In this document: piece after piece, positions 1 through 55,611 of the stretch
How positions within the stretch are numbered: the stretch's first letter is position 1
How the letters are laid out: every line of letters starts with the position of its first letter
IMG/VR virus record: IMGVR_UViG_3300047445_000457
Span: 6,227-70,226 of that record
Reading direction: 5' to 3' (one strand)
DNA from: a virus
Length of the DNA stretch: 64,000 bases
Notes under the pieces: generated by a model
What the model was told of the DNA's origin: nothing
What the model saw: the letters and a program-made list of their open reading frames with translations, nothing else
The model's database searches: none
Program-made: the position numbers and the translations under genes

Positions 1-3000
1 GCCGGACGCTGCCACGACCCCTGGAACAGGTCTTGGCCGAACGAACCCCAGCCGGTATAGCCGGCCAGCACTTCCTGTTCCTCGCGGGTCGGCGCGCGGC
101 CGGCGTCGAGCAACTGGTTGCGCATCTCGAGCGCGGCGCGGTTCTTGTCGAAGCGGACCTTCTGGCCGCCGCCGACGATTTTCAAGGGGTCGGCAATATG
201 GAAGTCACCCGGCCCGGTGTCCGCCGGGCTGACGCTCGCCGGGTTCTTTACGACAGGGGCGGCAGCGCGCGATCCTCCACGTCCTGCTCCGGTTCCAGCA
301 TCAGGATTTCGCGCTCCGCCATTTCGCGGGCGTCCGTCACCGGCATCCCCGCTTGCAGCAGTTCCTTCTGACGGGTCCACATGCGCTGCTGGAGCACGTA
401 CGCCAGTTGCTTCGTTATTTGCAGGCGTTGCAGGTCCGCCCACAGCTTCGGGCTGTCGCGCTCCCAGGTCGCCAGGATGTGCCGGTCCAGTTCCCGGTTG
501 TGCAGCGTCTCGTCGTTGTGGCGCAGCCGCAGGTACTCCTGCAGGATCTCCTTGCGCCATTCCTTGCTGGCTGTGTTCATCGGTCGTGGTTCCCTTGGGT
601 TTCTGTGCGTTATCGGGCGATGCTGCACTATTTTGAGCGTTCACGCCAGCGGCCTGCGCAACGGCAGCCCGTGCGCGGTCGGCCAGCTCGGATGCCGGCA
701 GGTTCACCGGCATCCAGCGGTTCTCGCCGCCGCTGAAACGCTGGCCCTCTTTCGTCACGCGCATCACGACACTGACGCCGGATTTGGTGGACTTGAGGAA
801 GCCCAGCGATTCGCCGCCAACAGTAATATAGATGCCGTGCTTCATGCCTGGGTGGAACATGGTCAGCATGGCATCGCCGGAACCGGCTGGGCCGCCTTCG
901 TTGACGCTGACGATCTTCGTCGGCTTGCCGTTGTGGTCCGTGTGCGGCACGAAGCCCTCGACGTCCAGCGCCTTGCCCACTGCTTTCAGGTAGGTGCTGG
1001 CGTCCTTGAGGAAAGCGTCCTTCATGCCCCCGCGCAGGCCGAAATCGGTCTGTTCGTTCTTGCCGCCGGGGATAGGCGTGTAGCCGTCGATGTACTCGAC
1101 GCCCCAATCGTCGCGCAGGACCGGATCGGTGCCGGACTTTGCTGGGCGCGGTGCGGTCGGCTGCGTCGGCTTTTCGTCCTTCGCGGCCGCCACTTGCGCA
1201 GTCTTCGCGGCAGCATCCTCGGTCGCCATCGCGGTCATCTTGTCCTTGGCCCAGGCGATCGCATCTTCCAGCGGCATCAGGCCGGTTTGCCCGAGTCCGC
1301 GCCCTTCGGCGCGCCACTGGTCGCCTTCGCGGGTCAGGATGACATTGGCATACTCGTAGTCGGGCAGCCTTACCTTGATGCTGCCGTCCTTCTCGTACAT
1401 CACCGCCAGGCCGGCGTCCTCGGCCAGCAGCCGTTGCCTGGACAGCGAGTTGACAATCACCTTCATGCCGGAAGGTGCGATATGCACGCTGGTTTCGCTG
1501 GCATCGCTTGCGGCTTTCGGCTCTGCCGCCTCTACCGCCGGCATTTTCATCCCGCGCCGCTGCATTTCCTTGGCGATCGGATCCGCGCGCTTCGGCAGTT
1601 CCTTATGCGCACGCAGCAGTTGCCCGTCCGTCATGGCCTTGACGGACAGATTGTTGAGTTCCTGGGTAGTCAGCTCGGCGCCGGTTTCCGCCGCCTTGAC
1701 GACCCCTTGCCCCAGCGTGATCTGGCGGCTGGCGTCAATACCGGGATAGTCGCGGGTGTCGATCCCGAGTGCCTGGCTGGCGCGGTCTTCCGATGCTTCG
1801 CGCTTTTTCGGGTCGGCGTTCTTGTGCTCACGCGCCTGCTGGTAGCGGCGTGCGGCGAGCGAATCGAGCACCTGGGCGATCTCGACCAGTGCGCGCTTCG
1901 CTTCCTGAACCGCTTTCGGGTAGCGTGAGTCGATCTGGTCCTCGTACCTGAACCCGAGTTGCGCCAGCGTCGGGGCCAGTTCGTTCCAGCGCTGCACCGC
2001 CGCGTCAATGATCGGCTGCGGCAGCACAGGGGCCACGTTGGTGATCCGCGGCATGTCGGCAGCCGTGATCGGCACAAAATCGACCGGCACGGCCGGCTTG
2101 CCCTCGCTCGCTCGCATGGCGATCGCCTGGCGCGCTTTGTCCTCGCGGAACGCCACGCCGGCCTCGTTCAGCCGGCCCTGGCCGGCGTCCATGTGTACGC
2201 CGGCCTCGATCACCCTGGCCATGTCGTCGTCGCCCGCGTCGCGCAGGTCACGCAGCATCTTCTCGATGCGTGGCGCGAACGGCGTCGACTGCCAGGCGCG
2301 CGCCGACGCTGCGGGTGCGGCCTCCGGCTCGTCTGCCGTCTCGCCCTTCTCTGCGGCCACCAGCTCGCGCAGCGCGTCATTCGCTGCGTCATCGTCCATA
2401 TCACCGTAGTAAGAATCCTCCACGGCGCTGTTGATGTCGCCTTCGGTCACGCCGGCCGCCACCGCCTGTTCGATCAGCTTGCGGTCGAGGCGGTCGTACT
2501 TGTTGGCGATCGCCATGGCCGGGTGATCGGCGGCGTTGTTGGCCATGAAGAAACCATAGCTGAAGCCTTCCGGCGTGACGGAACGGGCGTTCTTCGTCGC
2601 CTGGCTCTTGCCGCCGTACAGGCGGTGCATCTTGCTGCCCTCGGTCGGCTCGACCGGCGCCACCGGCAGGTCGCCGTTGAAGCGGCCCCAGATCAGGGTT
2701 TTCTTGGTGTACGGGTCGCCCAGGTGGTTCGGGTCGAACGACAGGCGCCACGGCGGCAGGCCACCCAGCTTCTCGATGCGGCCTACAGGGTTTTCCAGCG
2801 CCCAGACGGACGGCTTGAAGTATTCGATGGTGCGCAGGGTCTGGTGAACCAGGTTCACGCTGGCCACCGTGCGGCCGTCCGCGTCCTTGGCGGCGAAGTG
2901 GCGCGCGCCGGATACGGCGAAGTCAGTGCAGGGGCAGGCGGCCAGGATCGCGTACACGTCCATGCCGTCAAAGGAGCCGAACCAGTCGTTGAAGAACTCG

Positions 3001-6000
3001 GTCGAGAAGTTGTTGACGTCGCCCATTTCCGGGTCGTCCTGGATGTCGAAGCGGAATACCTGGTAGCCCGCTTCCTCCCACGGCTTCGACCACTCGCCCG
3101 ACAGGTCGAACAGCGACAGCACGACCTTCTGGCTGTTGGCGCGGCGCGTGGCGTCATCTTCATACTGAGCCAGCGCGTGTTCTTTCCACTGCTCGATTTT
3201 TGCCTTGGCCTCGGCCGGGGTCATCCAGCCATGCCCGGCATGGTAGACCTTTGCCTTGTCGGCCAGGCGGACGATCTCGCCATTCTTTGGCGGCTGGAAG
3301 ATGTTGGTAACGACGTGCTCGCCGTCCATCATTTCCGCTTGGGCGGCGTTGAACTCGTCCACGATCTCGCCCAGCTCGCGGTCATCCACCCCTTGCAGGT
3401 GTTCCGGCGCAGTCGCGTTCGGGTGTGCTTCCGGCTTCTCGGACGGCTCGGCCAGTGGCTTCCATTCGGTAAAACGATAGGTCGCCAGGCGCTCGGCGTT
3501 CTTGAGCGCTTCCAGCTTGTCCCAGCCGCCGGACGGCCCGGCACCGCCCTTGGTGTGGATGGTCTTGTCGCCGTCCTCCATCGACTTGACGACCCAGCCC
3601 TTGTCCGTCTTTTCGATCCACACCGTGCTGCCCGGTGCCCCGGCGTAGTCGAAGTGGGCGCGGTAGCCGGCATCGACGTCGCCAATGAATTCGTCCAGCG
3701 TGGTTGGCTCGCGCACTTCCAGCGGCTCGACCGTCTCCGCGGCGCGCGCACGCTTCTCCAGCGGACTCAGCGGCTCCACCGGATCCCGGCGCTGGTCGTC
3801 GCGCACCACGCGCGGCTGTGGCGAACCGTCTGCCATGTCCGACTGGATGATGTGCTTCATCGCCTGCGGGCGCGGGCGATCAGGCGTGATCAGCGCGCGC
3901 AGGCGGTTGGCGTCCGCCGATACGTTGCCGTCATAGTCGGCCGCCATCAAGGCGTCCAGGCGCGGCTGCAGGCGGGAGTCCGACACCGCGCCCAGGATAT
4001 GCACGGCATGGATGTTGTCGCCGTACTTCCGCATCAGGTCCGTGAGCTCGTCATTCGACACCGCCTCGGCCTGCGACGGGATGCCGATGATCGGAGAAAT
4101 GTCGCGCGCCGGGTCCATGCCCAGGTTGTGCATCATCTGCTCGTAAGCCTCGGTCAGCGACAGCTCACCACCTTGCAGCGGGATGATCGCCTGCAGGCCG
4201 TAGCCATTGATCGTCTCCGCATAGCGGGCGACCAGATCCAGCGAACCAGCCTGATCCCCCACGATGTCCGGCATGACGAAGAAGGCGCGACCGTTCGCCA
4301 TCCCGCCGCTGGCCTTGCTGATCGCGTGCGACAGGTCCTCGTAGCGCTGCATCAGTGCGTCGTGGTCCAGCTTTGCCGCCTCGGCCATTTCGCGCTGCTC
4401 GCGCTCCGCCACGCCCTGCTCCCGCACGTTGCGCATGAAGATCGAGAACGCGCCCGAATCAACGAACAGGTAGGCACCCGGCGCCGCTGCCAGCTGCTCG
4501 GCAATGCGCGGAACGGACACCTTCGACAGTTCCAGCATGGAAATGCCGACGTTCTTGCCGTTGCCGAACAGCTTGCTGTAGTCGCCCGGCGCACTCATGC
4601 CAGAGACGAACTTCAACGGTTGCTCCGGGGTGCCGTACACGCCCGGTTTGAACTGGCCGTTGGTGTCGACCGGGTTGCCGGCGTTGGCGTAGGTCTCCGC
4701 CAGCACACGGGCGCGCTCGCGCTCGTCCACGGCGGGCGGTTCCGGCGTCACCAGTTCGGAGGCCACCATGTCCGGCCCGCGCACGCGCGCATCTTCCTCA
4801 ACCAGCCGGTTGTAGCGGTCCTGATCCATCAGCACGACCTGCTCGGACAACATATCGGGGTTCCGAGTCATGCGGATCTTGTTCTTCCCGATGTCGATGC
4901 CATTGAGGCGGTAGAGCGTGCCATCTTCCGCGTGCAGGACGTCGCCAGTCGCGGCGGATTTCAGGCTGACTTTTGCAGGCGCATGCTTCGCCTTCGCCTC
5001 GCGGTACTGTTGCAAGGTGCGCTCGGCATCCGCAATCTTGTCGTCGTACACCCATGCGTTGGCGGTCGCCTTGGCCTGCTCTTGCAGCCGCTTCAATTCC
5101 GCGACCTTCGCCTCGCCTGCGGCGATGAGTTCGTCCAGTTTAGCGAGCGCGTCGGCGCTCGGTGCCGCCGGCGCGGCCACCAGGCGCAGCACCTGGTCGT
5201 CCGGCATCGCCGCCACCACTTCCTCGCTGTCGGTGCCTTCGTGGTCCTCGGCAATCGCGTTGTAGGCCGCTTTCCAGCGGCGCGCGCTGATCTGGTCCAC
5301 ATGCGGGGCCACAGCCGGGTTGCCGCGCATCGCCTTGGCCGAAGCGCCGACCGCGGCGGCGAACGTGCGGAATCCCTTGCGGACCAGCAGCTCGATCACC
5401 TTCGACAGCGCCGGCAGCAAATCGCCTGTGCCGTGCTGCTTGCCGGTCATGTTCAGCTTGGAACCGAACACGTCGCCCAGCACATCGCCCAAGTGCCCCA
5501 GCGCAGCCTGCAGCTCGGCGTCCAGCAGGTCGATGGCGGGTTCGTCCGGCTTATCCGGCGCCTGCTCGGCCGCTACTTCTGCCACGGTCGGCGGCGTCTC
5601 GCGCTTGCCGTCGATGAAGTCGTTGACCGCCTCGCTTTCCGAGCGCGGAATCGACGGATTGGGGGCGGGCTTCGTCCCGTCCTTGGTCGGGTTCAGCGCA
5701 TGGCGGATTTTCGCCAGCGCTCCCTTCTTGATGTCGAAGCGGTCGAGGGCGGCGAGCAAGGACTGGCGCAGCAGGTCCGCCGGCACGCGGGCGTTCTCGG
5801 CCCACTGCGCGACCGCCTGCGGCAGTTCCTTTGCGTCGAAGTCGGGCTCTCTCGTCTCTTCGGCCACCTGTCCGGCCATTTCGAGGCCGAGCGCCTCGGC
5901 CCGGTCTTCGATCAACTGCTCGGGAGTCTTGCCCTCGTTGCGCCAGGCTTCCGAGTTGCGCGAGGGTCGCGCCGGTTGCGCTTCGGCCGGCGACTCGGTT

Positions 6001-9000
6001 TTCGCCGTTGCCCCCTCCGCCGCCTCGGCGCTCGGGAACTCCGGCACCACCTTCAGCAGCTCGCGGATCGGCGCATCGAAGCGGATCACGCGCACCGGCT
6101 CGTCCTGCTCGTACTTGGCCAGCCACTGGTGATGGCCGTCGAGCACGTAGTCGTCGCTCGATACCAGGATCGCGCGGTCGCCGCCCTGGAAGTCCTTGGC
6201 CCGCTCGACCTTGGCGATGGAAAACTCGCGCTGGGTCGGCTTGAGCGTGTCCGGCTCCACGATGTCCTGTTCGTGCGCGATCCCGCGCCCCAGCAGGAAT
6301 TGCGTCAGTGCGCCGCGGTGCTCCGCCTTGATCTGCGGCATGTCGGCGCGTGGGATGCCCAGCGTGCCGGTCTCAGGCGCGAATGCGGTCCATTCCTTGT
6401 CGATCCGGTGGCCGGCGAGGTCGTTCACCGGCTCGGCCGCCTGGCGGCGCTTTGACGGCCCGGTGTAGTCGCGCACCTGGGCCGGCACGGTGGTATCGCC
6501 CAACTGGTTGAGCAGGAACGCGCGGTGGTGGCCGTCCTGCAAGTGCAGCGAGCCGTCCGGCAGTTCCTGGGCCTGGATCGGATGGGCGGCGGTGAAGGCG
6601 CGCAGGCGTGCTTGTGCCGCCGGGTCCGCCTTGATGGCGTCGACCAGTTCGCGCATCCCGGTGCCGGCCGGCAGATTCAGGCCCGCCGCGTGTTCGAGCA
6701 CGTCGCGGACCTGGCTTTCAGTCACGCCCTGCGTGCCGATCGCGCCGTTCGGGCGGCGGATCTCGGACAAAGCCAGGTCGATGGTGTCGGCCGGGTGCGG
6801 TGCGGTTTCGTGCGCCGCGTTCAGTGCAGCCTGTCCGGCCTCGGCATCCACTGCAGCCACAGCGCCCGCAGTACCGGGTTCGCCAGCGGCGACAGCGGCG
6901 CCGGGTTGCGCATCCTGCGCTCCAGCGGCGTGTCCGTGCCCACCTTCATCAGTTGCCGATACTGCATGATCTGCCCCCTCGGTAGCGCCGGGAACAGGCG
7001 CGACGGCTTTCCGCCCACCTTTTACGAATGCCTTGAACGCCTCCATCAGCGGCTTGCGCTGCCCGACCGGCACACCAGCCTTGTTCAGCGCCTTCCAGAA
7101 CTCGGTGCCGTCCTTCGCCTGCTGCGCCAGCGGCAGCAGTTCCGGCGGCAGCGCCGGCGCGGCGGCGGGCTGGCCCTTGGCCACGGGCGCGGCGGCGGGC
7201 TTGCGCTCGGGCACGGCGTCCACCAGCTCGTTCGGGGCGGCGTATTCAGCCTCGGGCACGGCAAAGGCGTGGGCCAGCGCGCTGTGCCGCTCGATGTGCC
7301 CGATTTCCTCCGGGGTCGGCGCCAGGTTCCGATACCCCTCGCGGCGCAGGCGGGCCGTGAACGCCGCCAGCTTCCTTTGCGGCGGGGCTTCGCCCAGCTC
7401 GTTCAGCACATGGTCGAGCAGGTCCATGCGCGCGTTGCGCGACTGCATCGCCTGGTGCGCCTCGACGCGGCCGTGGATGGCGTCGAGCTCAGCCTGGCGT
7501 TTCAGGTGTTGCATGCGCAGGTAGGCCTGCTGTTCGGCAGCGGCGGCTTGCTCCCGCTCGGCGGCGATGCGGGCGTCGTCCTCATGGATGCGGCGTTCCT
7601 CGGACGCCTCGATGGCAGGCTCCAGCAGGCGCAGCGCATCCTGTGGCGCGGCCTTGCGCGGCGCGAGCGCGGCTTTTTCCCTCTGCAACTGCTTGTATTC
7701 CGCTTCCTCGTCGGCGGTGTAGCGGCGCGCCGGGGCGTCCGGCCCGCCGCGCCCGATCGCGCGCAACTGCTCAAGGCGGGCGTCGATCTGGGCGATGCGT
7801 CCCTCCGCGGTCGGCGTTTCCGGCGGCGGGTCCTGCGCGGTCGCAGCGGCGTCAGTGGCCGCACCGGCAGGCGCAGCGCCGGCATCCGGCGCTGCCTGGT
7901 CGCCCGGCAGCGGCGTCGGCGGGGTCTTGTCGAAGCCGTTTGTGGCATCCACCTGGCGGCGCACCTCGGCTTGCTTTGCCGCACGCACGGCGGACGGGTC
8001 TTCGCTGCCGAATGCCGCCTCGGCATCGTCGCGGCGCTGCAGGCGCGCGGCGTCGGCCACGTTCGGGTCGAGTCCCGGCGACAGCGGCGGGGCAGCAGTC
8101 GCCGCCTGGCTGGTGGCGGCTGCGTGGTGCGCGCGTTCGAGCGGCCCGGCATCCGGCGACAGCGGCGGCGGCGCGGCAGGAGCGGCCGGCGCCGTAGCGG
8201 CGGGCTGGGTCGCCGGCTGATGCGTCGCCGCCGGCTGGTGATTACCATGGAACCCAGCCATGACCCCGCCCTGCACGCCGCCCACCACCATCCCGCTGCC
8301 GGCGGCGTTGCCGACCCCCTTCATGCGGTCCGGCTCGCCCTCGGCCACGTTGGTGAAATACTGTTCCTGGGCCGACTGCGGCGCTTCCTCCGCCACGCCT
8401 TCGCTGAAGGCTTCCTTGCCGATCTTGGCCAGCCGGCTGCCCTTCAAGGTATGCGCGCCGGTCGCCAGGTCGGTAGCGGCATCACCGAACACGCGGCCCG
8501 CTCCCAGCCCGATCCCGGCCGTGAGTGCGCCGGCGGTGAGCGCCGGCAGCGCGTAATCCGTGTAATCGCGCCCTTTACCTTGCGCCTGGTCCGCGATCTG
8601 GCCGGCGCTCTGCGCGCCCTCCATGCCCGAGCCGGTGGCCAGCAGGCGCGTCGAATTGGCCTCGACCGCGGCGTCAGCGGCGGCCTTGCCCGCCTTGGTC
8701 TTGAGCGCCGCCGCCGCCGCCTCGGCGCTGGACTTGCCGGCGTCGGTTGCGAGCTGCGCCGCCAGCTTGCCCTCGGTGGTGGCCAGCGCCGCCCTGACGC
8801 CGATGCGGGCGGCGAGCGCGTTGGTCACGCCCATGCCGGCCAACATCCCCGGCGCCGATTCGGCAATCCCGCCCAGGATCGCGCGCGGGTTCTCCAGCGA
8901 GGCAATGGTGCTGTCAACGAAGCCATCGGCCTGCTGGACTTTCGCATCCGCCGCCTTCTGGCTGTCGCTCAGGTACTCGCCCAGCGTTGCATTGGTGGCC

Positions 9001-9269
9001 TCGGGGTCGTAGCCGATCGCGCGCATACCCTTCCCCACCAGCCCGCCAGTCGCCAGGCTACCGAGGCCGACCACGGATTGCCCGAGGTCGACCGCGCCCT
9101 GCGCCAGCTTGATGCCGACGTCGCCCGCCGTCCGCAGGAAGCCCGCCTGTTCCGGCTCCTTGGCTTGCGCCTCCCCCATCTGGGAGTCGAGCCATGCCTG
9201 GCCGGCATCGAAATCGAGCGTGCTGCGGTTATCGGTCAGGTAGGGGGCTTGCGGTTTCTTGGTGGCCAT
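1..9269 (-). CDS. Giant polyvalent DarB-like virion-ejected protein (3' end beyond window, >=3089 aa)
   Basis: ATG at 9269 (MATKKPQAPY) just after the 746-aa gene. The ORF track lists no stop-terminated minus ORF in this frame, and I read 240-660 directly with no stop. Motifs: DGHHQW (6123-6140), FVDSGAFS (4443-4466), ACPCTDF/LENPVG (about 2781-2939), EEQEVLAGYTGWG (45-83). Confidence 0.88.
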   Translation of the reverse strand, partial: MATKKPQAPYLTDNRSTLDFDAGQAWLDSQMGEAQAKEPEQAGFLRTAGDVGIKLAQGAVDLGQSVVGLGSLATGGLVGKGMRAIGYDPEATNATLGEYLSDSQKAADAKVQQADGFVDSTIASLENPRAILGGIAESAPGMLAGMGVTNALAARIGVRAALATTEGKLAAQLATDAGKSSAEAAAAALKTKAGKAAADAAVEANSTRLLATGSGMEGAQSAGQIADQAQGKGRDYTDYALPALTAGALTAGIGLGAGRVFGDAATDLATGAHTLKGSRLAKIGKEAFSEGVAEEAPQSAQEQYFTNVAEGEPDRMKGVGNAAGSGMVVGGVQGGVMAGFHGNHQPAATHQPATQPAATAPAAPAAPPPLSPDAGPLERAHHAAATSQAATAAPPLSPGLDPNVADAARLQRRDDAEAAFGSEDPSAVRAAKQAEVRRQVDATNGFDKTPPTPLPGDQAAPDAGAAPAGAATDAAATAQDPPPETPTAEGRIAQIDARLEQLRAIGRGGPDAPARRYTADEEAEYKQLQREKAALAPRKAAPQDALRLLEPAIEASEERRIHEDDARIAAEREQAAAAEQQAYLRMQHLKRQAELDAIHGRVEAHQAMQSRNARMDLLDHVLNELGEAPPQRKLAAFTARLRREGYRNLAPTPEEIGHIERHSALAHAFAVPEAEYAAPNELVDAVPERKPAAAPVAKGQPAAAPALPPELLPLAQQAKDGTEFWKALNKAGVPVGQRKPLMEAFKAFVKGGRKAVAPVPGATEGADHAVSATDEGGHGHAAGAQDAQPGAAVAAGEPGTAGAVAAVDAEAGQAALNAAHETAPHPADTIDLALSEIRRPNGAIGTQGVTESQVRDVLEHAAGLNLPAGTGMRELVDAIKADPAAQARLRAFTAAHPIQAQELPDGSLHLQDGHHRAFLLNQLGDTTVPAQVRDYTGPSKRRQAAEPVNDLAGHRIDKEWTAFAPETGTLGIPRADMPQIKAEHRGALTQFLLGRGIAHEQDIVEPDTLKPTQREFSIAKVERAKDFQGGDRAILVSSDDYVLDGHHQWLAKYEQDEPVRVIRFDAPIRELLKVVPEFPSAEAAEGATAKTESPAEAQPARPSRNSEAWRNEGKTPEQLIEDRAEALGLEMAGQVAEETREPDFDAKELPQAVAQWAENARVPADLLRQSLLAALDRFDIKKGALAKIRHALNPTKDGTKPAPNPSIPRSESEAVNDFIDGKRETPPTVAEVAAEQAPDKPDEPAIDLLDAELQAALGHLGDVLGDVFGSKLNMTGKQHGTGDLLPALSKVIELLVRKGFRTFAAAVGASAKAMRGNPAVAPHVDQISARRWKAAYNAIAEDHEGTDSEEVVAAMPDDQVLRLVAAPAAPSADALAKLDELIAAGEAKVAELKRLQEQAKATANAWVYDDKIADAERTLQQYREAKAKHAPAKVSLKSAATGDVLHAEDGTLYRLNGIDIGKNKIRMTRNPDMLSEQVVLMDQDRYNRLVEEDARVRGPDMVASELVTPEPPAVDERERARVLAETYANAGNPVDTNGQFKPGVYGTPEQPLKFVSGMSAPGDYSKLFGNGKNVGISMLELSKVSVPRIAEQLAAAPGAYLFVDSGAFSIFMRNVREQGVAEREQREMAEAAKLDHDALMQRYEDLSHAISKASGGMANGRAFFVMPDIVGDQAGSLDLVARYAETINGYGLQAIIPLQGGELSLTEAYEQMMHNLGMDPARDISPIIGIPSQAEAVSNDELTDLMRKYGDNIHAVHILGAVSDSRLQPRLDALMAADYDGNVSADANRLRALITPDRPRPQAMKHIIQSDMADGSPQPRVVRDDQRRDPVEPLSPLEKRARAAETVEPLEVREPTTLDEFIGDVDAGYRAHFDYAGAPGSTVWIEKTDKGWVVKSMEDGDKTIHTKGGAGPSGGWDKLEALKNAERLATYRFTEWKPLAEPSEKPEAHPNATAPEHLQGVDDRELGEIVDEFNAAQAEMMDGEHVVTNIFQPPKNGEIVRLADKAKVYHAGHGWMTPAEAKAKIEQWKEHALAQYEDDATRRANSQKVVLSLFDLSGEWSKPWEEAGYQVFRFDIQDDPEMGDVNNFSTEFFNDWFGSFDGMDVYAILAACPCTDFAVSGARHFAAKDADGRTVASVNLVHQTLRTIEYFKPSVWALENPVGRIEKLGGLPPWRLSFDPNHLGDPYTKKTLIWGRFNGDLPVAPVEPTEGSKMHRLYGGKSQATKNARSVTPEGFSYGFFMANNAADHPAMAIANKYDRLDRKLIEQAVAAGVTEGDINSAVEDSYYGDMDDDAANDALRELVAAEKGETADEPEAAPAASARAWQSTPFAPRIEKMLRDLRDAGDDDMARVIEAGVHMDAGQGRLNEAGVAFREDKARQAIAMRASEGKPAVPVDFVPITAADMPRITNVAPVLPQPIIDAAVQRWNELAPTLAQLGFRYEDQIDSRYPKAVQEAKRALVEIAQVLDSLAARRYQQAREHKNADPKKREASEDRASQALGIDTRDYPGIDASRQITLGQGVVKAAETGAELTTQELNNLSVKAMTDGQLLRAHKELPKRADPIAKEMQRRGMKMPAVEAAEPKAASDASETSVHIAPSGMKVIVNSLSRQRLLAEDAGLAVMYEKDGSIKVRLPDYEYANVILTREGDQWRAEGRGLGQTGLMPLEDAIAWAKDKMTAMATEDAAAKTAQVAAAKDEKPTQPTAPRPAKSGTDPVLRDDWGVEYIDGYTPIPGGKNEQTDFGLRGGMKDAFLKDASTYLKAVGKALDVEGFVPHTDHNGKPTKIVSVNEGGPAGSGDAMLTMFHPGMKHGIYITVGGESLGFLKSTKSGVSVVMRVTKEGQRFSGGENRWMPVNLPASELADRARAAVAQAAGVNAQNSAASPDNAQKPKGTTTDEHSQQGMAQGDPAGVPAAAPQRRDAAQPGTGPAHPGDLGARQPEAVGGPATPANNEATGVRAPAAHVDPSEGTAASGDAGDGRPRNGGARNPDAGTGAGRGGSRAAAPVVKNPASVSPADTGPGDFHIADPLKIVGGGQKVRFDKNRAALEMRNQLLDAGRAPTREEQEVLAGYTGWGSFGQDLFQGSWQRP
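248..580 (-). CDS. Small helical protein (110 aa) nested out of frame inside the giant ORF
   Basis: MNTASKEWRKEIL...AREMAEREILMLEPE; AAGGGA SD 10 nt upstream; GC3 bias switches to this frame. Confidence 0.7.
   Translation of the reverse strand: MNTASKEWRKEILQEYLRLRHNDETLHNRELDRHILATWERDSPKLWADLQRLQITKQLAYVLQQRMWTRQKELLQAGMPVTDAREMAEREILMLEPEQDVEDRALPPLS
6821..6967 (-). CDS. Possible second nested small ORF (48 aa) in the giant ORF
   Basis: GAGGGGG SD-like element then ATG (MQYRQLMKVG); same alternative frame as 248-580; lies in a linker. Confidence 0.25.
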   Translation of the reverse strand: MQYRQLMKVGTDTPLERRMRNPAPLSPLANPVLRALWLQWMPRPDRLH

Positions 9270-9287
9270 GTTGGTCCTTGTCGTGGG

Positions 9288-11528
9288 TCAGAGCGGCATG
9301 CTGGCGGACTCGCCAGCGTTGGCGGCTTGCTCTTTCGCCTTGGCGTACAGTCGTGCGGCGGCCTTGCGGATGGCCGGGTTCGGGTTGGTCTTGGCGATTT
9401 CCTGGTACTTGGCCGGACCGTCCAGCGGGCCGATCAGCTTTTCCTGTACCCAGGTTTCCAGGGCGGCGTCCGTCATGCCGGTTGCGGCCGGCGCTGCAGC
9501 GCGCGGGGGCGTCTGTGCCGCATTCTTTTGCGGCGCAGGACCCGTGCCGCCTTTCCCCTGGTGCGGGGTGGATCTGGCCGCCACCGTCTTGTACGCCGCC
9601 TGCACCTTGGCGGCGTAGTCCGGGTCCTCGGCGTAGCCGCCCGTCTTCAACGCTGCGCCGAACCTGGCTGCGTCCGCACCTGCGCCGACTGCGCCGGGGT
9701 ACTTGCGGCGGATCAGGTCAACATACTGGTCCGCGAACTCATCGGGGCTGGCGAAGGCGCGGTACTTGTCCACGCTGCCGGTCTGGTTGTCGGTCGCCTC
9801 GACGCCCTCGCCGGAGAAGTCCTTGATGTTGCCGAGGTTATTCGTGCCGGGGACGATGGATTGGCCCCAGCCGGTTTCCAGACCCCAATGCCCCAGCACT
9901 ACGCTCGGGTCGACCCCGAGCGCTTCGCCAGCGCGCTTGGCGGCGGCACCGTAGCTGTTGGCATAGTCCGCTTGCTGCGCGTTCGGCTGGGCATCGCCCT
10001 GCTGCGGCGTGGCGCGGATCGCATGTTTCAGGTACTCGGCGCGCAGGCGGCGCAGCTCGGCCACCGGGTCCAGCATCTTCGGGTCGTTGGCCGCTTTCGG
10101 GTCCTTGGCGGCTTTGGCGACGTTAGCGGTGGCCAGCGCCTTGAGCTGGTTGTTCACGCCCACCGCCACCCCGGCGCCGCTCATGGCGTCGCCGCCGTGC
10201 TGGCGGGCGTAGTCGATGCCGACCGTCTTGGCGAAGGTGAAGCCGTCGCCGTCGTAGACTTCGTTGCCGTCCTGGTCCTTGGCCTTGGTCGTGGCCACCA
10301 GGTAGGCGTCGGCCTCCTTGGTCCAGTTCGCGGCCTGCTCGGCGCTCTGGGCCTGCTTTACCTTGAGCGCCTCTTCCTGCAGGCGGCGCTGCTCGCGCAT
10401 GTTCTTGGCCTGGTCCTCGCGGTAGCCGGCATTCGTGTCGGCGTTCTTCCTCGCCGCTTCCACCATGCCGGTCTTGTAGTCCGTTTCGCTCTTGCGCTGG
10501 GCCGCCTTATCCATCACCTCGAGGCGATCTTTCAGTGCCATCGTCTGGAACTGGTTGAGCGAGGTGTCGATGTCGGTGCGGCTGCCGTCATTGTTGGCAA
10601 TTTGCAGCTTCCAGGTCGGCACTTCCATACCGTTCGGCAGCGTGGTCGTGGCCTGCTGGGGCGTGCCGACGATGCGCCCGCGATTCTCTCCGAGGCCGTT
10701 GTACAGGGCCATGCCGCCCGCGAAATCGCCATGCGCAAACGCCTCCATGGCCTGCGTCACGCCCTCGGTGCGCATCTTGTTCAGCAGCTCGCGGGTCTGC
10801 ACGTAGGCCTGCGGATTGACGTCGCCGCGCTTGGCAGCGGAGTTCAGCATGGTCTCGTACATGCCCAGCATGCTGCGCATGTCGCGCGGCTTGGGGATGC
10901 CGGCCGGCTGCTGCACCAGTGGGGCGACGTCGCCGGATGCGGGTGCGGTTGGTGCCACCTGTGCGATTGGTGCCGCCTGCGCAATCGGTGCTGCCGGTGC
11001 CGCCTGTGCAATCGGTGCTGCCGGTGCGGCTGGCGCAGCCGTCATGTCCGGTGCGATCGCGCGCTGCGGCGGCGGGCCTTCCAGTCCATCGACCAGCGGC
11101 GTCGCCAGCTTGCTTGCGGTTGCCATCGGGGCCGGGGTAATGTCCGCTGCCGGATCGGCCACCGGCAAGGTCTGCGGACCGCCATCATCCGGCGCAGTGC
11201 CGCCTGCCGCCGGGGCGGAGGGCATTGCCGGGGCGGGCGCCGCTGCGGCACTCGGCGCAGCCGGCGTGCCGGCGGTCGGTGCGGTGGCGCCGCTTGCGGG
11301 CGGATCCTGCCAGTAGTCGGCGGCGGTCTTCTTATTAGCGTCGCGCACGCGGTCGGCCTCGCTCCACTCGTAGCGCTGGCGCGAACGCAGTTCGTCCTGG
11401 TAGGCGCGGTCGGCCTTCTTCGCCTCATCCTCCACGCGGCGGCGCTCGGTGTCTTCCTGGCGGCGCTGCTCGTCGCGGTAAGCGTTGTAGCCGGCGGCGG
11501 CGCCGGTCAAGTTGATTCCAAAACCCAT
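9288..11528 (-). CDS. Ejection/internal virion protein with C-terminal GH73 (FlgJ-like) peptidoglycan hydrolase domain
   Basis: GHWGLETGWG, NNLGNIK and GGYAEDPDYAAKV motifs; Pro/Ala linker; located among ejection genes. Confidence 0.85.
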   Translation of the reverse strand: MGFGINLTGAAAGYNAYRDEQRRQEDTERRRVEDEAKKADRAYQDELRSRQRYEWSEADRVRDANKKTAADYWQDPPASGATAPTAGTPAAPSAAAAPAPAMPSAPAAGGTAPDDGGPQTLPVADPAADITPAPMATASKLATPLVDGLEGPPPQRAIAPDMTAAPAAPAAPIAQAAPAAPIAQAAPIAQVAPTAPASGDVAPLVQQPAGIPKPRDMRSMLGMYETMLNSAAKRGDVNPQAYVQTRELLNKMRTEGVTQAMEAFAHGDFAGGMALYNGLGENRGRIVGTPQQATTTLPNGMEVPTWKLQIANNDGSRTDIDTSLNQFQTMALKDRLEVMDKAAQRKSETDYKTGMVEAARKNADTNAGYREDQAKNMREQRRLQEEALKVKQAQSAEQAANWTKEADAYLVATTKAKDQDGNEVYDGDGFTFAKTVGIDYARQHGGDAMSGAGVAVGVNNQLKALATANVAKAAKDPKAANDPKMLDPVAELRRLRAEYLKHAIRATPQQGDAQPNAQQADYANSYGAAAKRAGEALGVDPSVVLGHWGLETGWGQSIVPGTNNLGNIKDFSGEGVEATDNQTGSVDKYRAFASPDEFADQYVDLIRRKYPGAVGAGADAARFGAALKTGGYAEDPDYAAKVQAAYKTVAARSTPHQGKGGTGPAPQKNAAQTPPRAAAPAATGMTDAALETWVQEKLIGPLDGPAKYQEIAKTNPNPAIRKAAARLYAKAKEQAANAGESASMPL

Positions 11529-11537
11529 GTTGCGCTC

Positions 11538-11795
11538 CTACTCCCCGGCTGGGGTGGTTGGGACTTCGAGGCGGGGCGACACCATGAACCTCACGGACTC
11601 GATGCGGCCGATCTCCATGGTCAACAGGCGCGCGCCCCGGTAGGCATCGGCGCGGCGCTCAAAGCGCTCGCGGCTGCGGTCAAGCAGGTGTTGCCCCTGC
11701 GCCGACAGGCGATCCAGCGTGCCGCCCTTCAAGGCACGATTCGGCATGCACCACAGGCGCATGAAACCTGCGCTTCCCGGCATGGCGGGGTCCAT
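11538..11795 (-). CDS. Hypothetical protein
   Basis: 85-aa ORF filling the gap, translationally coupled to the upstream gene. Confidence 0.5.
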   Translation of the reverse strand: MDPAMPGSAGFMRLWCMPNRALKGGTLDRLSAQGQHLLDRSRERFERRADAYRGARLLTMEIGRIESVRFMVSPRLEVPTTPAGE

Positions 11796-12508
11796 CAGGT
11801 GCCGATGCTCTCGCCGCTCGGCAGCGTATAACCGTCATTGCCACCGCTATACATATTCGCGTCGGTCATGCCGTTGCCGGACGAGGACGTGAACTTGCTC
11901 CAGTCGACCTTCGACAGTCCGCCGATCGCCGCGCCGGCGAGCTGGCCGGCCGCCGCGCCCTGCGCATTGGCCTGCTGCTGCTGGCTGTTCGCCACCGCAT
12001 TCGCGGTGCTGGCCGCGTTGGCGAAGCCGGTCGAGGCGTTGGCCACCAGCCCCTTGCCCATGCCGAGCATGTCGAGCTGGTGGGCGTAGGCGCTGTCCTT
12101 GACCTGTTTTCTCGCCGTGTTCTGCGCGGTCGCGCCCATCGCGGCGCCGGACAGGGCCAGGTTCGTTTGCGCCGCCTGCGCGGCAGCCGACGACGGATCG
12201 AAACCGACCTGGCGCGACAGACGATCCTGCGCCTTGCCGATCTCGCTCGAGACGTTGGCCTGCGCCTCCGCGGCGGCGGCATTGCGCGCCTCGGGGGTGT
12301 CGTAGTTCTTGGCGTCCATCACCATCTGCGTTTCGAGCGGCTGGTAGTTGGCCTTGTAGCTGTCCCACTGGTCCTGCGCGATCCGGCCCTGGTAGGCGTT
12401 GGCTTCAAGCGCCGCCTTCTGGGACTCGGCGGCGTTTTTCGACGCCTTGTTCGACGCGACCCCACCGACCACCGCCGAAGTAACTGCTGCTGCTGCTGCC
12501 CATGGCAT
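11795..12508 (-). CDS. DNA ejection/pilot-type protein
   Basis: Gly/Ala-rich hydrophobic N-terminus (MPWAAAAAVTSAVVGGVAS), Ala/Gln-rich helices; position typical of podovirus ejection proteins. Confidence 0.65.
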   Translation of the reverse strand: MPWAAAAAVTSAVVGGVASNKASKNAAESQKAALEANAYQGRIAQDQWDSYKANYQPLETQMVMDAKNYDTPEARNAAAAEAQANVSSEIGKAQDRLSRQVGFDPSSAAAQAAQTNLALSGAAMGATAQNTARKQVKDSAYAHQLDMLGMGKGLVANASTGFANAASTANAVANSQQQQANAQGAAAGQLAGAAIGGLSKVDWSKFTSSSGNGMTDANMYSGGNDGYTLPSGESIGT

Positions 12509-15094: not shown

Positions 15095-15674
15095 ATCCTG
15101 CCACCGGCACCACCAGCATCCCCCACAGCCCCAGCGCATAGCTGCCGCCCATGTCGTTACCCATGTGCAGCGTCAGCGCATAGGTCCCGGCCTCGAGGCG
15201 GAAGCCGTTTGAGGCCACATGCGTGCGGGTGTAGCCGCCGCGCGTGGTGTCACTCTGGGACAGCAGCACGACCCCGCTGCCGTTGTGGATCTCGGCACGG
15301 GTGCCGCCCGTCCTGATGCCGCTGGAGGTCCAGTTCACCGTCGCCTGAAAGCTGGTCGCGCGGTCGAGCACCAGGTTGATGGTGGCGAGCGGGCCGGACA
15401 GCGTGCCAAGCCCGAACGTGCCGCCGCCGGACCCTTTCACGTAGCGGGCGAGCATCCGCGGCGCGGCGCCCTGCTCGCCCACCGCACCCAGGCGCACGAC
15501 TTCGAGCGCCTGGCGCGTGGTGATGAAGGCGTCGTCGCCGCTGCCCGCCAGGTTGTTGCGGACGTTGTGGGTATCCACCAGCGCGCGCAGCACGTCGCGC
15601 ACCTTGCCGTCCCCGATCGCGGCGAGTGACGCGAGCGGGATACCCGGAATGACTTTGCCGGCCTGGTCGGTCAT
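15093..15674 (-). CDS. Tail-associated protein
   Basis: Coupled to the 691-aa gene; its C-terminal beta-rich domain resembles a segment of that protein. Confidence 0.65.
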   Translation of the reverse strand: MTDQAGKVIPGIPLASLAAIGDGKVRDVLRALVDTHNVRNNLAGSGDDAFITTRQALEVVRLGAVGEQGAAPRMLARYVKGSGGGTFGLGTLSGPLATINLVLDRATSFQATVNWTSSGIRTGGTRAEIHNGSGVVLLSQSDTTRGGYTRTHVASNGFRLEAGTYALTLHMGNDMGGSYALGLWGMLVVPVAG

Positions 15675-17749
15675 CACATCGCCTTCAGGTCAGTCGTGGT
15701 TTCGGCCACGCGCAGCTCGCGGAACACGCCGGTGCCGTGGATCGCCACCTGCCAGCGGTCGGACAGGAAGCCGGACGGCAGGCGGAAAGTCACGTTCCCA
15801 TCCAGCCCGGCCTGCGTGTGGCGCAGCACGCCATCGGCGTAGAAATCCACGGTCCAGCTACCGCTGCACACGGCCTGCGCCACGCTGAAATTGCAGGGGC
15901 GTAGCATGATGAAGGTGCGGCTGATCCAGTTGGCCGTCAGCAGCGGCCCGCCCGCCACGCGCACCAGGCTCGACCCGTTAACAACGAAACACTGGTCGGC
16001 CACCGGCGACACGAACGAGCATTGCGCGCGCAGGTTCGGCAACTCCGTCATCGCGCCGCGCGCTTCGTCCAGCCCGAGCATGAAGGGCGTAAAGGCGTCC
16101 TCCGCCGAATACACGATCAGGCGCCCGTCCCAGACCGCGAAGCGCATGCTGGCCAGCCCTGCCCCGTACTTGGCGCGCCACACGTCGCGCGTAAAATAAA
16201 TCTCGGACATGGCCATGGACGGCAGGCCACCGTCGAAGGCCACGATCCCGTCATGCGAGGCGTACACGATCTGCCCGCCCAGGTCCGCCAGCGCCCACTT
16301 CGACGCGCCGGCCTGCTGCGTATTCAGTACGCTGTAGGTCATCGAGTCGGGCGACACGCCGGCCACCACGTAGGGTTTTCCGGTCGTCGTCACCAGCGCG
16401 GAGGCGCCGACCGCGATGGCGCCGACCACGTTGTAGTCGCCAAAGGTCAGCCGGTACTGCGGTGGCCACGACCACGGCTTGTAGGCGTCCGAAAAGTGCA
16501 TTTCATTGCCCTTCCAGGCCATCAAAATACCGTTCGGGAGCTGTAGCAGGCCGACCAGGGCCGGATCCGGCGGGTAGTAGTTCATCGACGCCAGCGCCTC
16601 GTTCAACTCCGCCGCCTGCACGTCGTCGTGGAAGGTCACGGTCCCGGCCCCGACACCCAACACGTCGATCTTGCCGACATAAAAATACTCGGCAATGCTC
16701 GAACTGTCCGGCGTGCGGTAAATCCGCACTTCCTTGAGCGGCGCGTAGTCGTCCGCCGGCGGCGCGTAGGGCACGCTGACGTCGACCGCGCCGAGCGGAA
16801 AGGTGAACATGGCGGGCGGCGACGGCGGGCCTTCCTCGCCGTAGGTATTCACCTGGGTCCAGACATAGGCGCGCGTCACGTCCGGCGGCGGATCCGCTGC
16901 CGGCAGGGTTTCGCCCTCGACCTGGACCGGGATCAGGGTGATCGACCACTGCCCCAGATACCACCAGCCCTGGGTCCAGTCGTTGCCGAAGCTGAGCTGA
17001 AAGACATGCTCGCCGGCGTCCAGCGTCACGGCGCCGGTGGCGGCGCGCGACTCGTTGTACCCGGCCAGGCCGGACGCCGACTGCGCGAGCATCACGGCGC
17101 CGTCCGCCGTCACCTCGACGCGCACATTGAAATTGTCGCCCGGATTGAACGACAGCGATTCCCAGGCCACCAGCACGGCCACGCTGCCGGCTACGGGCAG
17201 GGTGATGTGCGCCGCAGCGACCATCGGCCCCATGCCGGCGCCGGCGTGGTATTCAAAGCCGCTGCTGTTTGTGCTCTGGGTGCCGTGCATGTAGACCGGC
17301 AGCACGCCGGCGTTGGTCGCCGCGCTCGCCGTGCCCGCGGTGCCGCCCGAGCTGGAAAGCGCGATCGACGGCGCGGCGGCGGGGCGCGGCACGCCCACGC
17401 GGTAGCTGCTTGGCGGCGGGCCACCTGCAGCGCTCATGCTATTGCGTGACGCGACACGGAAATCCGTGGTCGTGGTGTAGTACAGCCGGTTGAACAGGTC
17501 GTTCGCCATGGGCGAGCGCACCGCATTGACGTCGGTTGGCCAGGAATAGAACAGGGTGCCGTCGTCGGTGTAGATGCTGGCCGCGCTCGCGCCCAAGGCA
17601 TGTTCCGGCACGTCGGCCGCCGCGCTGCGCAGCTCGCCATAGGCGAAATCGCAGTTGTTCGCGGTCGTCGCGTTGACCGGCGGCAGCAGCGTGTCCGGCA
17701 CGCGCGGCAACAGGCCGGCGAAGCGGGCGAGTTTAATACCATTTGGCAT
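15674..17749 (-). CDS. Podovirus tail nozzle/hub-type protein (691 aa)
   Basis: Beta-rich; YVWTQVNTYGEEGPPS, RIYRT and IVYASHDG segments typical of podovirus tail stabilisation proteins. Confidence 0.7.
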   Translation of the reverse strand: MPNGIKLARFAGLLPRVPDTLLPPVNATTANNCDFAYGELRSAAADVPEHALGASAASIYTDDGTLFYSWPTDVNAVRSPMANDLFNRLYYTTTTDFRVASRNSMSAAGGPPPSSYRVGVPRPAAAPSIALSSSGGTAGTASAATNAGVLPVYMHGTQSTNSSGFEYHAGAGMGPMVAAAHITLPVAGSVAVLVAWESLSFNPGDNFNVRVEVTADGAVMLAQSASGLAGYNESRAATGAVTLDAGEHVFQLSFGNDWTQGWWYLGQWSITLIPVQVEGETLPAADPPPDVTRAYVWTQVNTYGEEGPPSPPAMFTFPLGAVDVSVPYAPPADDYAPLKEVRIYRTPDSSSIAEYFYVGKIDVLGVGAGTVTFHDDVQAAELNEALASMNYYPPDPALVGLLQLPNGILMAWKGNEMHFSDAYKPWSWPPQYRLTFGDYNVVGAIAVGASALVTTTGKPYVVAGVSPDSMTYSVLNTQQAGASKWALADLGGQIVYASHDGIVAFDGGLPSMAMSEIYFTRDVWRAKYGAGLASMRFAVWDGRLIVYSAEDAFTPFMLGLDEARGAMTELPNLRAQCSFVSPVADQCFVVNGSSLVRVAGGPLLTANWISRTFIMLRPCNFSVAQAVCSGSWTVDFYADGVLRHTQAGLDGNVTFRLPSGFLSDRWQVAIHGTGVFRELRVAETTTDLKAM

Positions 17750-30534: not shown

Positions 30535-30850
30535 CCGGGTGCTCTTGGTTTGTGATCGGTTCCCCGAACAGGTCGGCTTGCCGGGTCGCCTCTGCGGCGT
30601 CCTGCTCTAGCTGGTAAAGCGACTTGGAGCGGTCGATGACGGTGTAGCGCACGACGCCCTTCTGGCGCAGGTCGCGCAGCACGCGGTCCGCAGACGCCGG
30701 CGCACAGCCTCCCTCCACCATGCCGTCGACATGGCGGCGCAGGTCGTCGGCGTGGAACGTGCGGCCTGCACGCTGGCGGCAATAGAGCAGGATCGCATCG
30801 GCAATCCGCGCCGACGTCGCTACCAGGTGGGCGGTATTCGGGTGGGTCAT
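30527..30850 (-). CDS. Small winged-helix-like protein
   Basis: FHADDLRRHV...APASADRVLRDLRQKG. Confidence 0.7.
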   Translation of the reverse strand: MTHPNTAHLVATSARIADAILLYCRQRAGRTFHADDLRRHVDGMVEGGCAPASADRVLRDLRQKGVVRYTVIDRSKSLYQLEQDAAEATRQADLFGEPITNQEHPAR

Positions 30851-37987: not shown

Positions 37988-38006
37988 GACGTAATTTGGG
38001 AGAGGG

Positions 38007-54503: not shown

Positions 54504-54519
54504 TTGCTAAAAACGACAC
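54391..54519 (+). repeat. Iteron array, consensus CTAAAAACGACAC
   Basis: Units at 54391, about 54412, 54444, 54465, 54486, 54507; inverted copy at 54779-54791. Confidence 0.85.
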
Positions 54520-55581: not shown

Positions 55582-55611
55582 CACCATTACCCAGATCGAC
55601 CTGGTGCAGGC

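Follow-up and report, generated by a model that had tools for sequence, protein, structure and literature searches.

The left end of the window, that is, of the 64,000-nucleotide stretch of DNA analysed here (bases 6227-70226 of the single-contig, 70,226-bp IMG/VR virus record IMGVR_UViG_3300047445_000457), raises the question of whether a very long minus-strand reading frame represents a real gene and, if so, what a phage may do with a protein of this size. An initial annotation, made from the sequence of the window, had proposed that the frame encodes a DarB-like polyvalent protein in which several DNA-protection domains are stacked. Our analysis revealed that this frame is a single, genuine phage gene, which encodes a protein of more than 5,165 amino acids (aa), in which an N-terminal module, two ParB-like regions, a DpdA-like barrel, a C5-cytosine methylase module, an LPD36-like/N6-methyltransferase/SNF2 module, an HExxH region and the start of an ART-PolyVal domain follow one another. 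It is also the last and largest gene of the virion/ejection operon of a temperate phage. By analogy with relatives that have been studied experimentally, the product is likely to be a polyvalent protein of this operon that is packaged, ejected and marks the phage genome on its entry, using up to three chemistries. The giant protein is an ordinary member of a known, abundant class, and neither its size nor its DarB module is new.

A single giant gene at the left end of the window

The minus-strand open reading frame (ORF) at 3..9269, which holds the N-terminal part of the giant gene, comprises 3,089 codons from its ATG start and is open at the window edge in the ORF listing of the window. The same frame continues uninterrupted through the left flank to contig base 1, which adds 2,076 codons (contig 1-6228) and gives a total of 5,165 codons with the 3' end still open. 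The size of more than 3,000 aa proposed earlier was thus an understatement, and an in-frame stop, which had been named as a finding that would speak against the proposal, does not occur in any of the 5,165 codons. Given the local base composition, the stop probability is 0.0219 per codon, and approximately one stop per 46 codons would be expected; the log10 probability that the frame is open by chance is -29.7 for the 3,089 codons in the window and -49.6 for all 5,165. The G+C content of the frame at codon positions 1, 2 and 3 is 0.72, 0.485 and 0.831, respectively, and its third-position value resembles those of two other genes of the element, for the capsid (0.896) and the portal (0.844). 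The long plus-strand ORFs at 381..1928, 1959..6455 and 6525..11831 show an antisense pattern, with a G+C content of 0.73-0.87 at the first and 0.69-0.73 at the third position. Because a peak at the first position is what the antisense strand of a real gene would give, the initial reading of these ORFs as the antisense shadow of the minus-strand gene was right. The start of the gene is also well delimited: the upstream gene ends with a TGA at 9290-9288, the earliest possible start is the ATG at 9269, and a Shine-Dalgarno-like AAGGA (9275..9279, minus strand) lies 5 nt before this ATG within the 18-nt intergenic gap.

That the long frame could be an artefact, generated by mis-assembly, by a chimera or by reading through several genes, has two points in its favour: a high G+C content favours long spurious ORFs, such as the overlapping plus-strand ORFs of 1498 and 1768 aa, and the contig terminates within the giant gene. 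However, the frame shows in-frame homology over its whole length to single proteins of 4,947-7,235 aa, it has the codon-position G+C content of real genes, and the probability of its chance occurrence is about 1e-50. We therefore regard an artefact as extremely improbable.

Where the contig cuts the gene can be judged from the best match among isolated phages, the gp31 protein of Pseudomonas phages vB_PaeM_USP_18 and USP_25 (QLI49405.1, 4,947 aa, annotated as 'hypothetical protein'). The final 17 residues before the contig end come after an RWFGDS motif. In USP_18 gp31 the same motif occurs at residue 3779 and is followed directly by an ART-PolyVal domain (residues 3788-3972), and this protein extends 1,168 residues past the point at which ours ends. 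The match suggests that the contig cuts the giant gene near the start of a further enzyme domain, ART-PolyVal, and that the complete giant protein, if built like gp31, is probably about 6,300 aa long; the missing 1,100-1,200 or so codons would be predicted to hold ART-PolyVal and LPD38/PLxRFG domains. When 185,579 species genomes were scanned with the C-terminal 488 aa, no close prophage was detected, and the missing gene end was not recovered; only the last 50-76 residues, corresponding to the start of the ART-type domain, matched, in four unrelated metagenome-assembled genomes. These matches (46-62% identity) were found in genomes labelled Clostridia, Desulfovibrio, Gemmatimonadaceae and Muribaculaceae, and this domain boundary is widely shared. 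The record itself is classified in IMG/VR as a provirus with an estimated completeness of 85%.

Domains predicted to act on DNA

The domain at residues 1555-1814 (3828..4607, minus strand) had been described as TGT-like, a description that was supported and can be sharpened to DpdA-like by structure search and profile-profile alignment. Its AlphaFold (AF2) model is a beta/alpha barrel of the TIM type (pLDDT 80.5, pTM 0.80). When 48,161 chains were searched with this model by VIA, the first-ranked chain was the DpdA structure 7ui4, a DNA preQ0 insertase (Z 11.9, root-mean-square deviation 3.9, 187 aligned residues), and the archaeosine TGT 1iq8, the bacterial TGT 3unt and QTRT2 were found at ranks 2 (Z 11.5), 4 (Z 10.9) and 16, respectively. 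Alignment of the profile of 50 family members by hhalign gave a match of 82.7% to the DpdA of phage 9g alone and of 93.3% (E 2.6e-7) to seven phage DpdAs; with a looser alignment threshold, the latter value was 94.4% (E 8.7e-8, 208 columns). In this alignment the motifs FVDSGAFS/FLDSGAFS, PDIVGDQ/LDGIGDP, LQGGE/FHAGE, VHILG/VHGFG and SADAN/SCDSS lie in register, corresponding to the patterns DSGAFS, (P/L)D.(V/I)GD, (Q/H)GGE, VH.(L/F)G and (A/C)D(A/S).

The FVDSGAFS motif is located at residue 1602, and the putative catalytic residues are D1604 (within DSGAF, together with F1608), D1668, Q1699 and D1786. The three aspartates, which are D50, D114 and D232 in the numbering of the domain, are invariant or nearly so among the 50 family members and align with D72, D114 and D215 of phage 9g DpdA. 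Salmonella DpdA has been described as using Asp95 as the general acid/base together with the gating Phe99, Asp130 and His181 as base contacts, and Asp256 as the nucleophile, and replacement of either catalytic Asp with Ala abolished guanine exchange (PMC10164549); the catalytic pair is named inconsistently in that paper, as Asp95/Asp256 in a figure legend and as 'Asp265 and Asp95' in the body. The numbering of phage 9g DpdA was transferred to that of Salmonella DpdA by motif identity rather than by alignment. The domain thus shares with the phage DpdAs (9g gp03 and relatives) and with Salmonella DpdA 7ui4 the same TIM barrel, motifs that lie in register and the best structural match. It differs from them in that the identity is only about 19%, in that a Gln rather than a His occupies the base-contact position, in the lack of a Pfam TGT match, and in forming part of a giant protein, whereas DpdAs stand alone.

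Several observations weigh against this assignment. Unrelated TIM barrels were found at VIA Z scores of 10-11, within 1-2 of that of DpdA and thus near ties, and Foldseek ranked sugar-epimerase/xylose-isomerase-like barrels, not TGTs, first among the structures of the PDB. The Pfam TGT family (PF01702) matched nowhere in the record at E <=1, whereas all 14 control genomes were matched, and the CxCxxC...H zinc site of TGTs and bacterial DpdA is absent from the domain, which contains no Cys at all. No QueC gene was detected in the 70-kb record, in which FolE, QueD and QueE were not searched for. The absence of the zinc site does not separate the domain from phage DpdAs, because no invariant Cys was found among the seven that were aligned. 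Searches of the sequences of solved structures yielded nothing useful for the DpdA-like profiles or for phage 9g DpdA itself. The link to DpdA is therefore based on VIA and on the profile-profile comparison, with generic barrels returned by Foldseek against the PDB. These comparisons support the view that the domain is DpdA-like, that is, a member of the superfamily by its modelled fold and active-site pattern that lies outside every curated family.

The same data allow the barrel to be read as something other than a base-exchange enzyme, for example a glycoside hydrolase used for wall crossing, or an enzyme that attacks the DNA of the host, whether as a DNA glycosylase or as an endonuclease. 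The Foldseek PDB and BFVD lists include sugar isomerases, glycosyl hydrolases and 'spherulation-specific family 4' barrels, Endo IV, a TIM-barrel enzyme acting on DNA, is structurally near DpdA (PMC10164549), and the silent Pfam TGT family, the missing zinc site and the lack of QueC (again with FolE, QueD and QueE outside the search) fit this reading as well. It is countered by the 93-94% profile match to phage DpdAs, in which all conserved motifs, including both catalytic aspartates, are in register, by the placement of DpdA and TGTs at ranks 1, 2, 4 and 16 of 48,161 chains, and by a homologue that is fused to Mom, a DNA base modifier. On balance, an activity other than base exchange is unlikely.

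The family to which the barrel belongs is large. A word-indexed search with the barrel matched only 11 proteins (157-501 aa), and a profile search of 1.84 billion cluster representatives retrieved 1,161 proteins at E <=0.001, 745 of them at E <=1e-30, so the family comprises at least 1,161 clusters at 50% identity. Among the best 150 of the 1,161 members, 61 have fewer than 450 aa and 62 have 1,000-7,235 aa. The relatives that carry the domain reach 7,235 (P0345), 7,099 (P0265) and 7,054 aa (P0319) and are among the longest single-ORF proteins of phage type that we have met. None of the 50 short family members matched a named Pfam family, except for one weak match to DUF6610. At least two further cluster representatives (P0020, 5,281 aa; P0265, 7,099 aa) likewise combine a C5 module, a DpdA-like domain and a DarB module. 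One solo homologue from a metagenome (P0004, 497 aa) has the DpdA-like domain fused to a domain of the Mom family (Pfam PF25680, E 2.8e-6).

No description of a DpdA-like domain as part of polyvalent or virion proteins was found in the literature, for which the work of Iyer 2017 is represented by its main text. That main text contains neither 'TGT' nor 'queuine', and 'cytosine' occurs in it only in the title of a reference (PMC5512222). The publication found to pair 'polyvalent protein' with 'DpdA' is a 2026 paper on BREX-related systems, in which GNAT-TGT fusions are mentioned for defence loci and not for phage proteins, and among the titles retrieved for 'PLxRFG', none concerns a DpdA-like domain in such proteins. 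The domain may thus be an enzyme type for which no description was found in this protein class, and the tables of Iyer 2017 may list it under another name.

The C5-cytosine DNA methyltransferase-type module at residues 1950-2300 (2370..3422, minus strand) had likewise been recognized by the initial annotation, and it is supported by matches to phrog_757 ('DNA methyltransferase', E 1.4e-41) and to Pfam DNA_methylase, by solo homologues and by structure. The match to PF00145 amounts to 23.3 bits for the domain alone, where the cut-off is 22, and to 18.2 bits, under the cut-off, in the whole protein. The catalytic motifs are C-P-C at residues 2112-2114 (PCTDF at 2113) and ENP at 2158 (ALENP at 2157), and C2114 would be the expected nucleophile. 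We take Pro-Cys to be motif IV and Glu-Asn-Val to be motif VI of C5-methyltransferases; motif VI is ENP, not ENV, in our protein. P174-C175 and E220-N221-P222-V223 are invariant in 26 aligned sequences.

This module is the most conserved piece of the giant protein. Its search gave 387 matches among proteins of 1,698-5,406 aa, and it was present at 62-86% identity in all 120 giants listed; a further 1,515 matches fell among proteins of 149-475 aa, of which the 120 listed are 67-86% identical, and several of these solo homologues are named 'DNA cytosine methyltransferase' by NCBI. The solo methyltransferases of approximately 350-400 aa (from Pandoraea, Cupriavidus, Pseudomonas and Acinetobacter; phrog_757 type), which show this identity among those listed, share the same PC and ENP motifs, whereas in our protein the module is an internal domain of a giant polypeptide. 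In the structural comparison of its model (pLDDT 79.7), all Foldseek matches listed (ranks 1-49) were DNMT3A/3B or M.HhaI (E from 2.6e-4, TM 0.26-0.35), and the top 19 VIA chains all belonged to the C5-methyltransferase family (Z 11.7-7.9), with SDR and generic Rossmann folds at Z 7.9 or less. The best VIA matches were the C5-carboxymethyltransferase 8yf3 (Z 11.7), a prophage enzyme (Z 11.6) and M.HhaI (Z 11.0), and DNMT3A/B, DNMT1, DNMT5 and Dnmt2 were also found; the fold is thus like that of M.HhaI, DNMT3A and 8yf3 at Z 11.7-11.0. Because the top three matches are tied, the transferred group cannot be read from the fold. Neither the C5 domain nor the C5 profile gave a sequence-level match to solved C5-methyltransferases.

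Residues 2663-3089 (3..1283, minus strand) contain a domain that also occurs in USP_18 gp31, a linker rich in Ala, Pro and Gly, and the stretch EEQEVLAGYTGWG, located at residue 3063, which leads into the N6-methyltransferase. The initial annotation had predicted that an N6-methyltransferase/SF2-helicase module would follow this motif just past the window edge. Such a module is indeed present there, with a phrog_10089 ('DarB-like antirestriction') score of 1796 bits and Pfam matches to Helicase_C, SNF2-rel_dom and ResIII; profile positions 1350-1631 of phrog_10089 fall in the part of the DarB module that lies in the window. The identity to USP_18 gp31 over residues 2663-4754 is 53% (BLASTP). 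The N6-adenine methylase motifs EPSIGIGNF and NWPF and the GTGKT and DEAH motifs of an SNF2-type helicase were seen in the sequence. BLASTP aligned the module collinearly with P1 DarB, with 33% identity over 193 aa in the methyltransferase (E 1e-26), 21% over 442 aa in the SNF2-type helicase core (E 2e-10) and 30% over 96 aa in the helicase C domain (E 3e-10). Among the sequences of solved structures, the helicase was matched by SNF2 ATPases only, and nothing useful was obtained for the N-terminal 3,089 aa, and the NCBIfam matches were limited to helicase families, far under the cut-offs. LPD36 has been placed N-terminal to the methyltransferase in polyvalent proteins (PMC5512222, Iyer 2017). 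The EEQEVLAGYTGWG stretch may be called LPD36-like by its position only; its match to DarB residues 45-76 has an E-value of 0.58.

Downstream of this module, an HExxH region is present (HETMH at residue 4949), and a search of the ESM Atlas with residues 4756-5165 returned viral uncharacterised clusters (scores 0.80-0.83) and a lead to LPD23. A stretch resembling a twin-arginine signal, SRRQFLAAAAAAALA, occurs at residues about 4809-4825 (contig 1021-1073, minus strand), shortly before HETMH. Its Pfam TAT_signal score is 19.1 bits, under the cut-off of 22.7, for which reason the stretch, which may be due to chance, is not treated as a signal.

The N-terminal module (residues about 40-350; 8220..9152, minus strand) was defined by BLASTP matches to giant relatives and is Gly/Ala-rich. 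The order of domains given by the initial annotation holds, with all of the motifs present, except that it began with a hydrophobic N-terminus: the Kyte-Doolittle mean never exceeds 1.4 in any 19-residue window of the whole giant protein. Further Ala/Pro/Gly-rich stretches are found at residues 301-400, 701-800 and 2901-3000. Among 22 fetched giants with the N-terminal module, the match starts fewer than 65 residues from the N-terminus in 21 (subject positions 1-64), and the remaining one has a partial match that starts near residue 140. The module also shows a weak match to phrog_2206 ('virion RNA polymerase', E 5.5e-7). It is a candidate signal for virion incorporation or ejection.

The ParB-like call of the initial annotation is borne out weakly, at the level of motifs. 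Region 1 (residues 885-935, DGHHR at 912; 6465..6617, minus strand) matches Pfam ParBc_2 at E 2.2e-4 with 21.8 bits, under the cut-off of 23.6. Region 2 (residues 943-1118, DGHHQW at 1044; 5916..6443, minus strand) matches phrog_11358 (E 1.3e-36) and phrog_2859 (E 1.1e-22), both of 'unknown function'. It is 56% identical to USP_18 gp31 (BLASTP) and is common to this protein and 19 other fetched giants, and none of these 20 is among the 15 fetched giants with the Pfam family ddrB-ParB (PF18763). P1 DdrB was rejected as a relative of the ParB-like regions, since its best E-value against the N-terminal 3,089 aa is 0.046 and the carriers of ddrB-ParB are different proteins. 'ParB-like' remains a call made from motifs. 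A search of the ESM Atlas with residues 1130-1550, which lie between region 2 and the barrel, gave no usable match. Domains were assigned to the giant protein except in five stretches that total about 1,700 residues (350-880, 1130-1550, 1815-1950, 2300-2660 and 4755-5148).

Bacterial DpdA requires DpdB, a ParB-like ATPase (PMC10164549). In the Mycobacterium phages Hilltopfarm and CRB2 and the Arthrobacter phage Sonali, dpdA lies directly after a ParB-like gene or one small gene after it, an adjacency that echoes the bacterial DpdA/DpdB pair. The requirement for DpdB and the actinophage gene order make the fused ParB-like regions candidate partners of the DpdA-like domain. Two findings speak against such a partnership: region 2 has a Gln where ParB has an Arg, and region 2 and the DpdA-like domain occur together in only 7 of 62 large proteins, a lower bound obtained by BLAST. 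With these findings, the case for the ParB-like regions as partners is weak.

Relatives, cysteine content and possible role of the giant protein

Hundreds of relatives of up to 7,235 aa are present in the databases and have been named by NCBI and JGI, so the protein is not 'hidden', as the initial annotation put it, in the sense of being rare. The names of the giant relatives listed include 'PLxRFG domain-containing protein', 'LPD38 domain-containing protein' and 'N12 class adenine-specific DNA methylase'. The USP_18/USP_25 protein shows 56% identity to ours over P0002 residues 7-1659 (tblastn) and is likewise encoded last in its structural operon, where a holin and a lysozyme gene come next. 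No part of it matches our residues 1250-2660, so that it is without the DpdA-like and C5-methyltransferase modules, and its C-terminus is complete, with LPD23 and ART-PolyVal. P1 DarB (2,255 aa), the experimentally studied archetype, has a collinear N6-methyltransferase and SNF2-type helicase and consists of this module only, whereas our protein has approximately 3,000 aa of domains in front of it and more behind. P1 DarB resides in the phage head and shields DNA in cis from type I enzymes (PMC5512222). No relative of DarA or DdrB was seen.

The DarB-like antirestriction proteins of Bcep22-like podophages (JC1 gp69, 4,515 aa; Bcep22 gp75; BcepIL02; DC1; CSP3) represent a more distant version, with about 30% identity over P0002 residues 7-1498, and are also encoded by the last gene of the morphogenesis module. 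JC1 gp69 is abundant in CsCl-purified virions, in which 51 of its unique peptides were detected (PMC9144972). The domains reported for these giants in the JC1 and CSP3 papers are a transglycosylase, a helicase and an adenine methylase; their lytic transglycosylase domain is annotated inside the giant protein, whereas in our phage the wall hydrolase is encoded by a separate upstream gene. With the polyvalent proteins described in the main text of Iyer 2017 (PMC5512222), our protein shares many unrelated enzymatic domains per polypeptide (ParB-like, DpdA-like, C5-methyltransferase, N6-methyltransferase and SNF2 helicase in one frame), virion-gene neighbours, the LPD36/adenine methyltransferase/SWI2-SNF2 triad and putative domains of the ParB superfamily, but its ParB-like region 2 is not of the ddrB-ParB family. 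It has been proposed that polyvalent proteins enter the cell along with the DNA and that their own peptidases process them (PMC5512222).

The giant protein is almost devoid of Cys. Only two of its 5,165 residues are Cys, at positions 2112 and 2114, and both belong to the C-P-C motif of the methylase, whereas 13 other proteins of the window contain 50 Cys in 6,273 aa (0.8%). Among its neighbours in the ejection operon, the glucosaminidase protein and the DNA-ejection protein, which were counted, have none. The depletion extends to the family: in 143 fetched relatives longer than 3,000 aa, the median is 0.40 Cys per 1,000 aa. We infer that Cys is counter-selected in proteins that exit the capsid in an unfolded state and pass through the oxidising periplasm, and the near-total absence of Cys fits passage of the giant protein, unfolded, through the tail and periplasm. 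The sole surviving Cys pair being catalytic, the sequence also argues that the methylase module is active. Family-wide loss of Cys that spares a methylase motif is a sequence signature that could be used to flag ejected proteins and to tell live from dead catalytic modules.

These features suggest the following course of events for the proposed polyvalent protein. It would be packaged into the capsid and leave it together with the DNA, in the manner shown for P1 DarB and JC1 gp69, and may cleave itself into pieces by its own putative metallopeptidase. Its DNA-modifying modules would then mark the entering genome before host nucleases act: the helicase-coupled DarB module would place m6A, the C5 module would form a C5 adduct on cytosine, and the DpdA-like domain would replace guanine with a 7-deazaguanine (preQ0) supplied by the host, a reaction in which a ParB-like domain might take the part of DpdB. 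The last step would need the free 7-deazaguanine base from the host. Some findings do not sit easily with this scheme. No Pfam metallopeptidase was detected, and residues 4678-5165 gave only the sub-threshold TAT_signal match at E <=1. The phage also has two ordinary solo methylases that could modify its DNA before packaging, and how P1 DarB itself works is not settled.

The enzymes may instead act mainly in the producer cell, late in infection, so that progeny DNA is modified before packaging or while it proceeds, and the protein would be injected incidentally or to some other end. A gene in the late operon implies that its protein is present while the DNA is packaged, the two solo methylases encoded between the portal and capsid genes must act in the producer cell, and DpdA-type modifications have been called post-replicative (PMC10516641). 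On the other side, the DarB archetype protects in cis after injection (PMC5512222), its relative JC1 gp69 is found in virions (PMC9144972), and the near-absence of Cys throughout the family points to an ejected protein. We consider this alternative possible, if on the unlikely side; it is compatible with injection of the protein, and the two readings do not exclude each other. Less probable still is that the protein is chiefly a structural or ejection component, such as an internal core or a trans-envelope conduit, with the enzymatic modules as secondary, variable cargo. In favour of this reading, the N-terminal module occupies a conserved position among relatives that differ widely in their internal domains, the gene adjoins those for ejection proteins and the wall hydrolase, and precomputed Pfam matches reveal relatives with SLT or glucosaminidase domains inside the giant. 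The C5 module, however, is maintained at the identity given above in every one of the 120 giants listed, and retention of the catalytic Cys alone argues for selection on catalysis.

Delivery of a polyvalent protein that marks the entering DNA remains the reading we favour. A more specific and rather doubtful extension of it is that the DpdA-like family represents virion-carried DNA base-exchange enzymes housed in giant proteins, which swap guanine in the incoming genome for the 7-deazaguanine of the host, with the ParB-like domain acting as DpdB. If this is true, incoming DNA would be disguised from restriction, including by Dpd systems that use the same mark as 'self'; a fourth injected anti-restriction chemistry would be added to methylation, DNA mimicry and DNA binding; and a DNA hypermodification would, for the first time, be proposed to arise after injection instead of after replication. 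Base exchange on incoming DNA would thus add to the counter-defences known so far and account for a widespread domain family that has been neither named nor modelled. Even apart from this extension, three types of DNA-marking enzyme appear to be combined in one polypeptide that, judged by its relatives, is probably injected. In some phages, about a fifth of the genome is devoted to giant polyvalent proteins, whose activities are almost untested. Such proteins affect the host range of phages and hence the choice of phages for laboratory or therapeutic use.

Genomic surroundings

The genes upstream of the giant gene are on the same strand and agree with the earlier placement of the gene after the ejection genes. 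They encode the large terminase (38007-39557, minus strand), the portal (35651-38071, minus strand), the major head protein (28206-29210, minus strand), an internal virion protein (15674-17749, minus strand), a tail-fibre-like protein located between the genes for the internal virion protein and the ejection protein, and a virion structural/DNA-ejection protein (11795-12508, minus strand), which matches phrog_8003 (E 1.8e-23) and phrog_21132 ('DNA ejection', E 6e-10). The gene immediately before the giant gene (9288..11528, minus strand) encodes a protein of 746 aa with a peptidoglycan glucosaminidase domain (Pfam Glucosaminidase, E 1e-20; phrog_3513) and is probably a wall-degrading ejection protein. 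It is this gene order that places the giant gene last in the virion/ejection operon.

The genes for the two solo methylases lie between those for the portal and the major capsid protein. The larger enzyme is a C5-type DNA methylase of 695 aa (32160-34247, minus strand; Pfam DNA_methylase, E 2.3e-32), and the other is an N6/N4-type DNA methylase of 438 aa (30847-32163, minus strand; Pfam N6_N4_Mtase, E 3.2e-30). Together with those of the giant protein, the element has four methylase-type modules. No tRNA gene was found in the window. A gene for a TrfA-like plasmid replication initiator is present at 53250-54503 (plus strand; Pfam TrfA, E 3.7e-17), and it adjoins a stretch of low G+C content at 54001-56000 (0.519 versus about 0.65). 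The 'provirus' might replicate as a plasmid.

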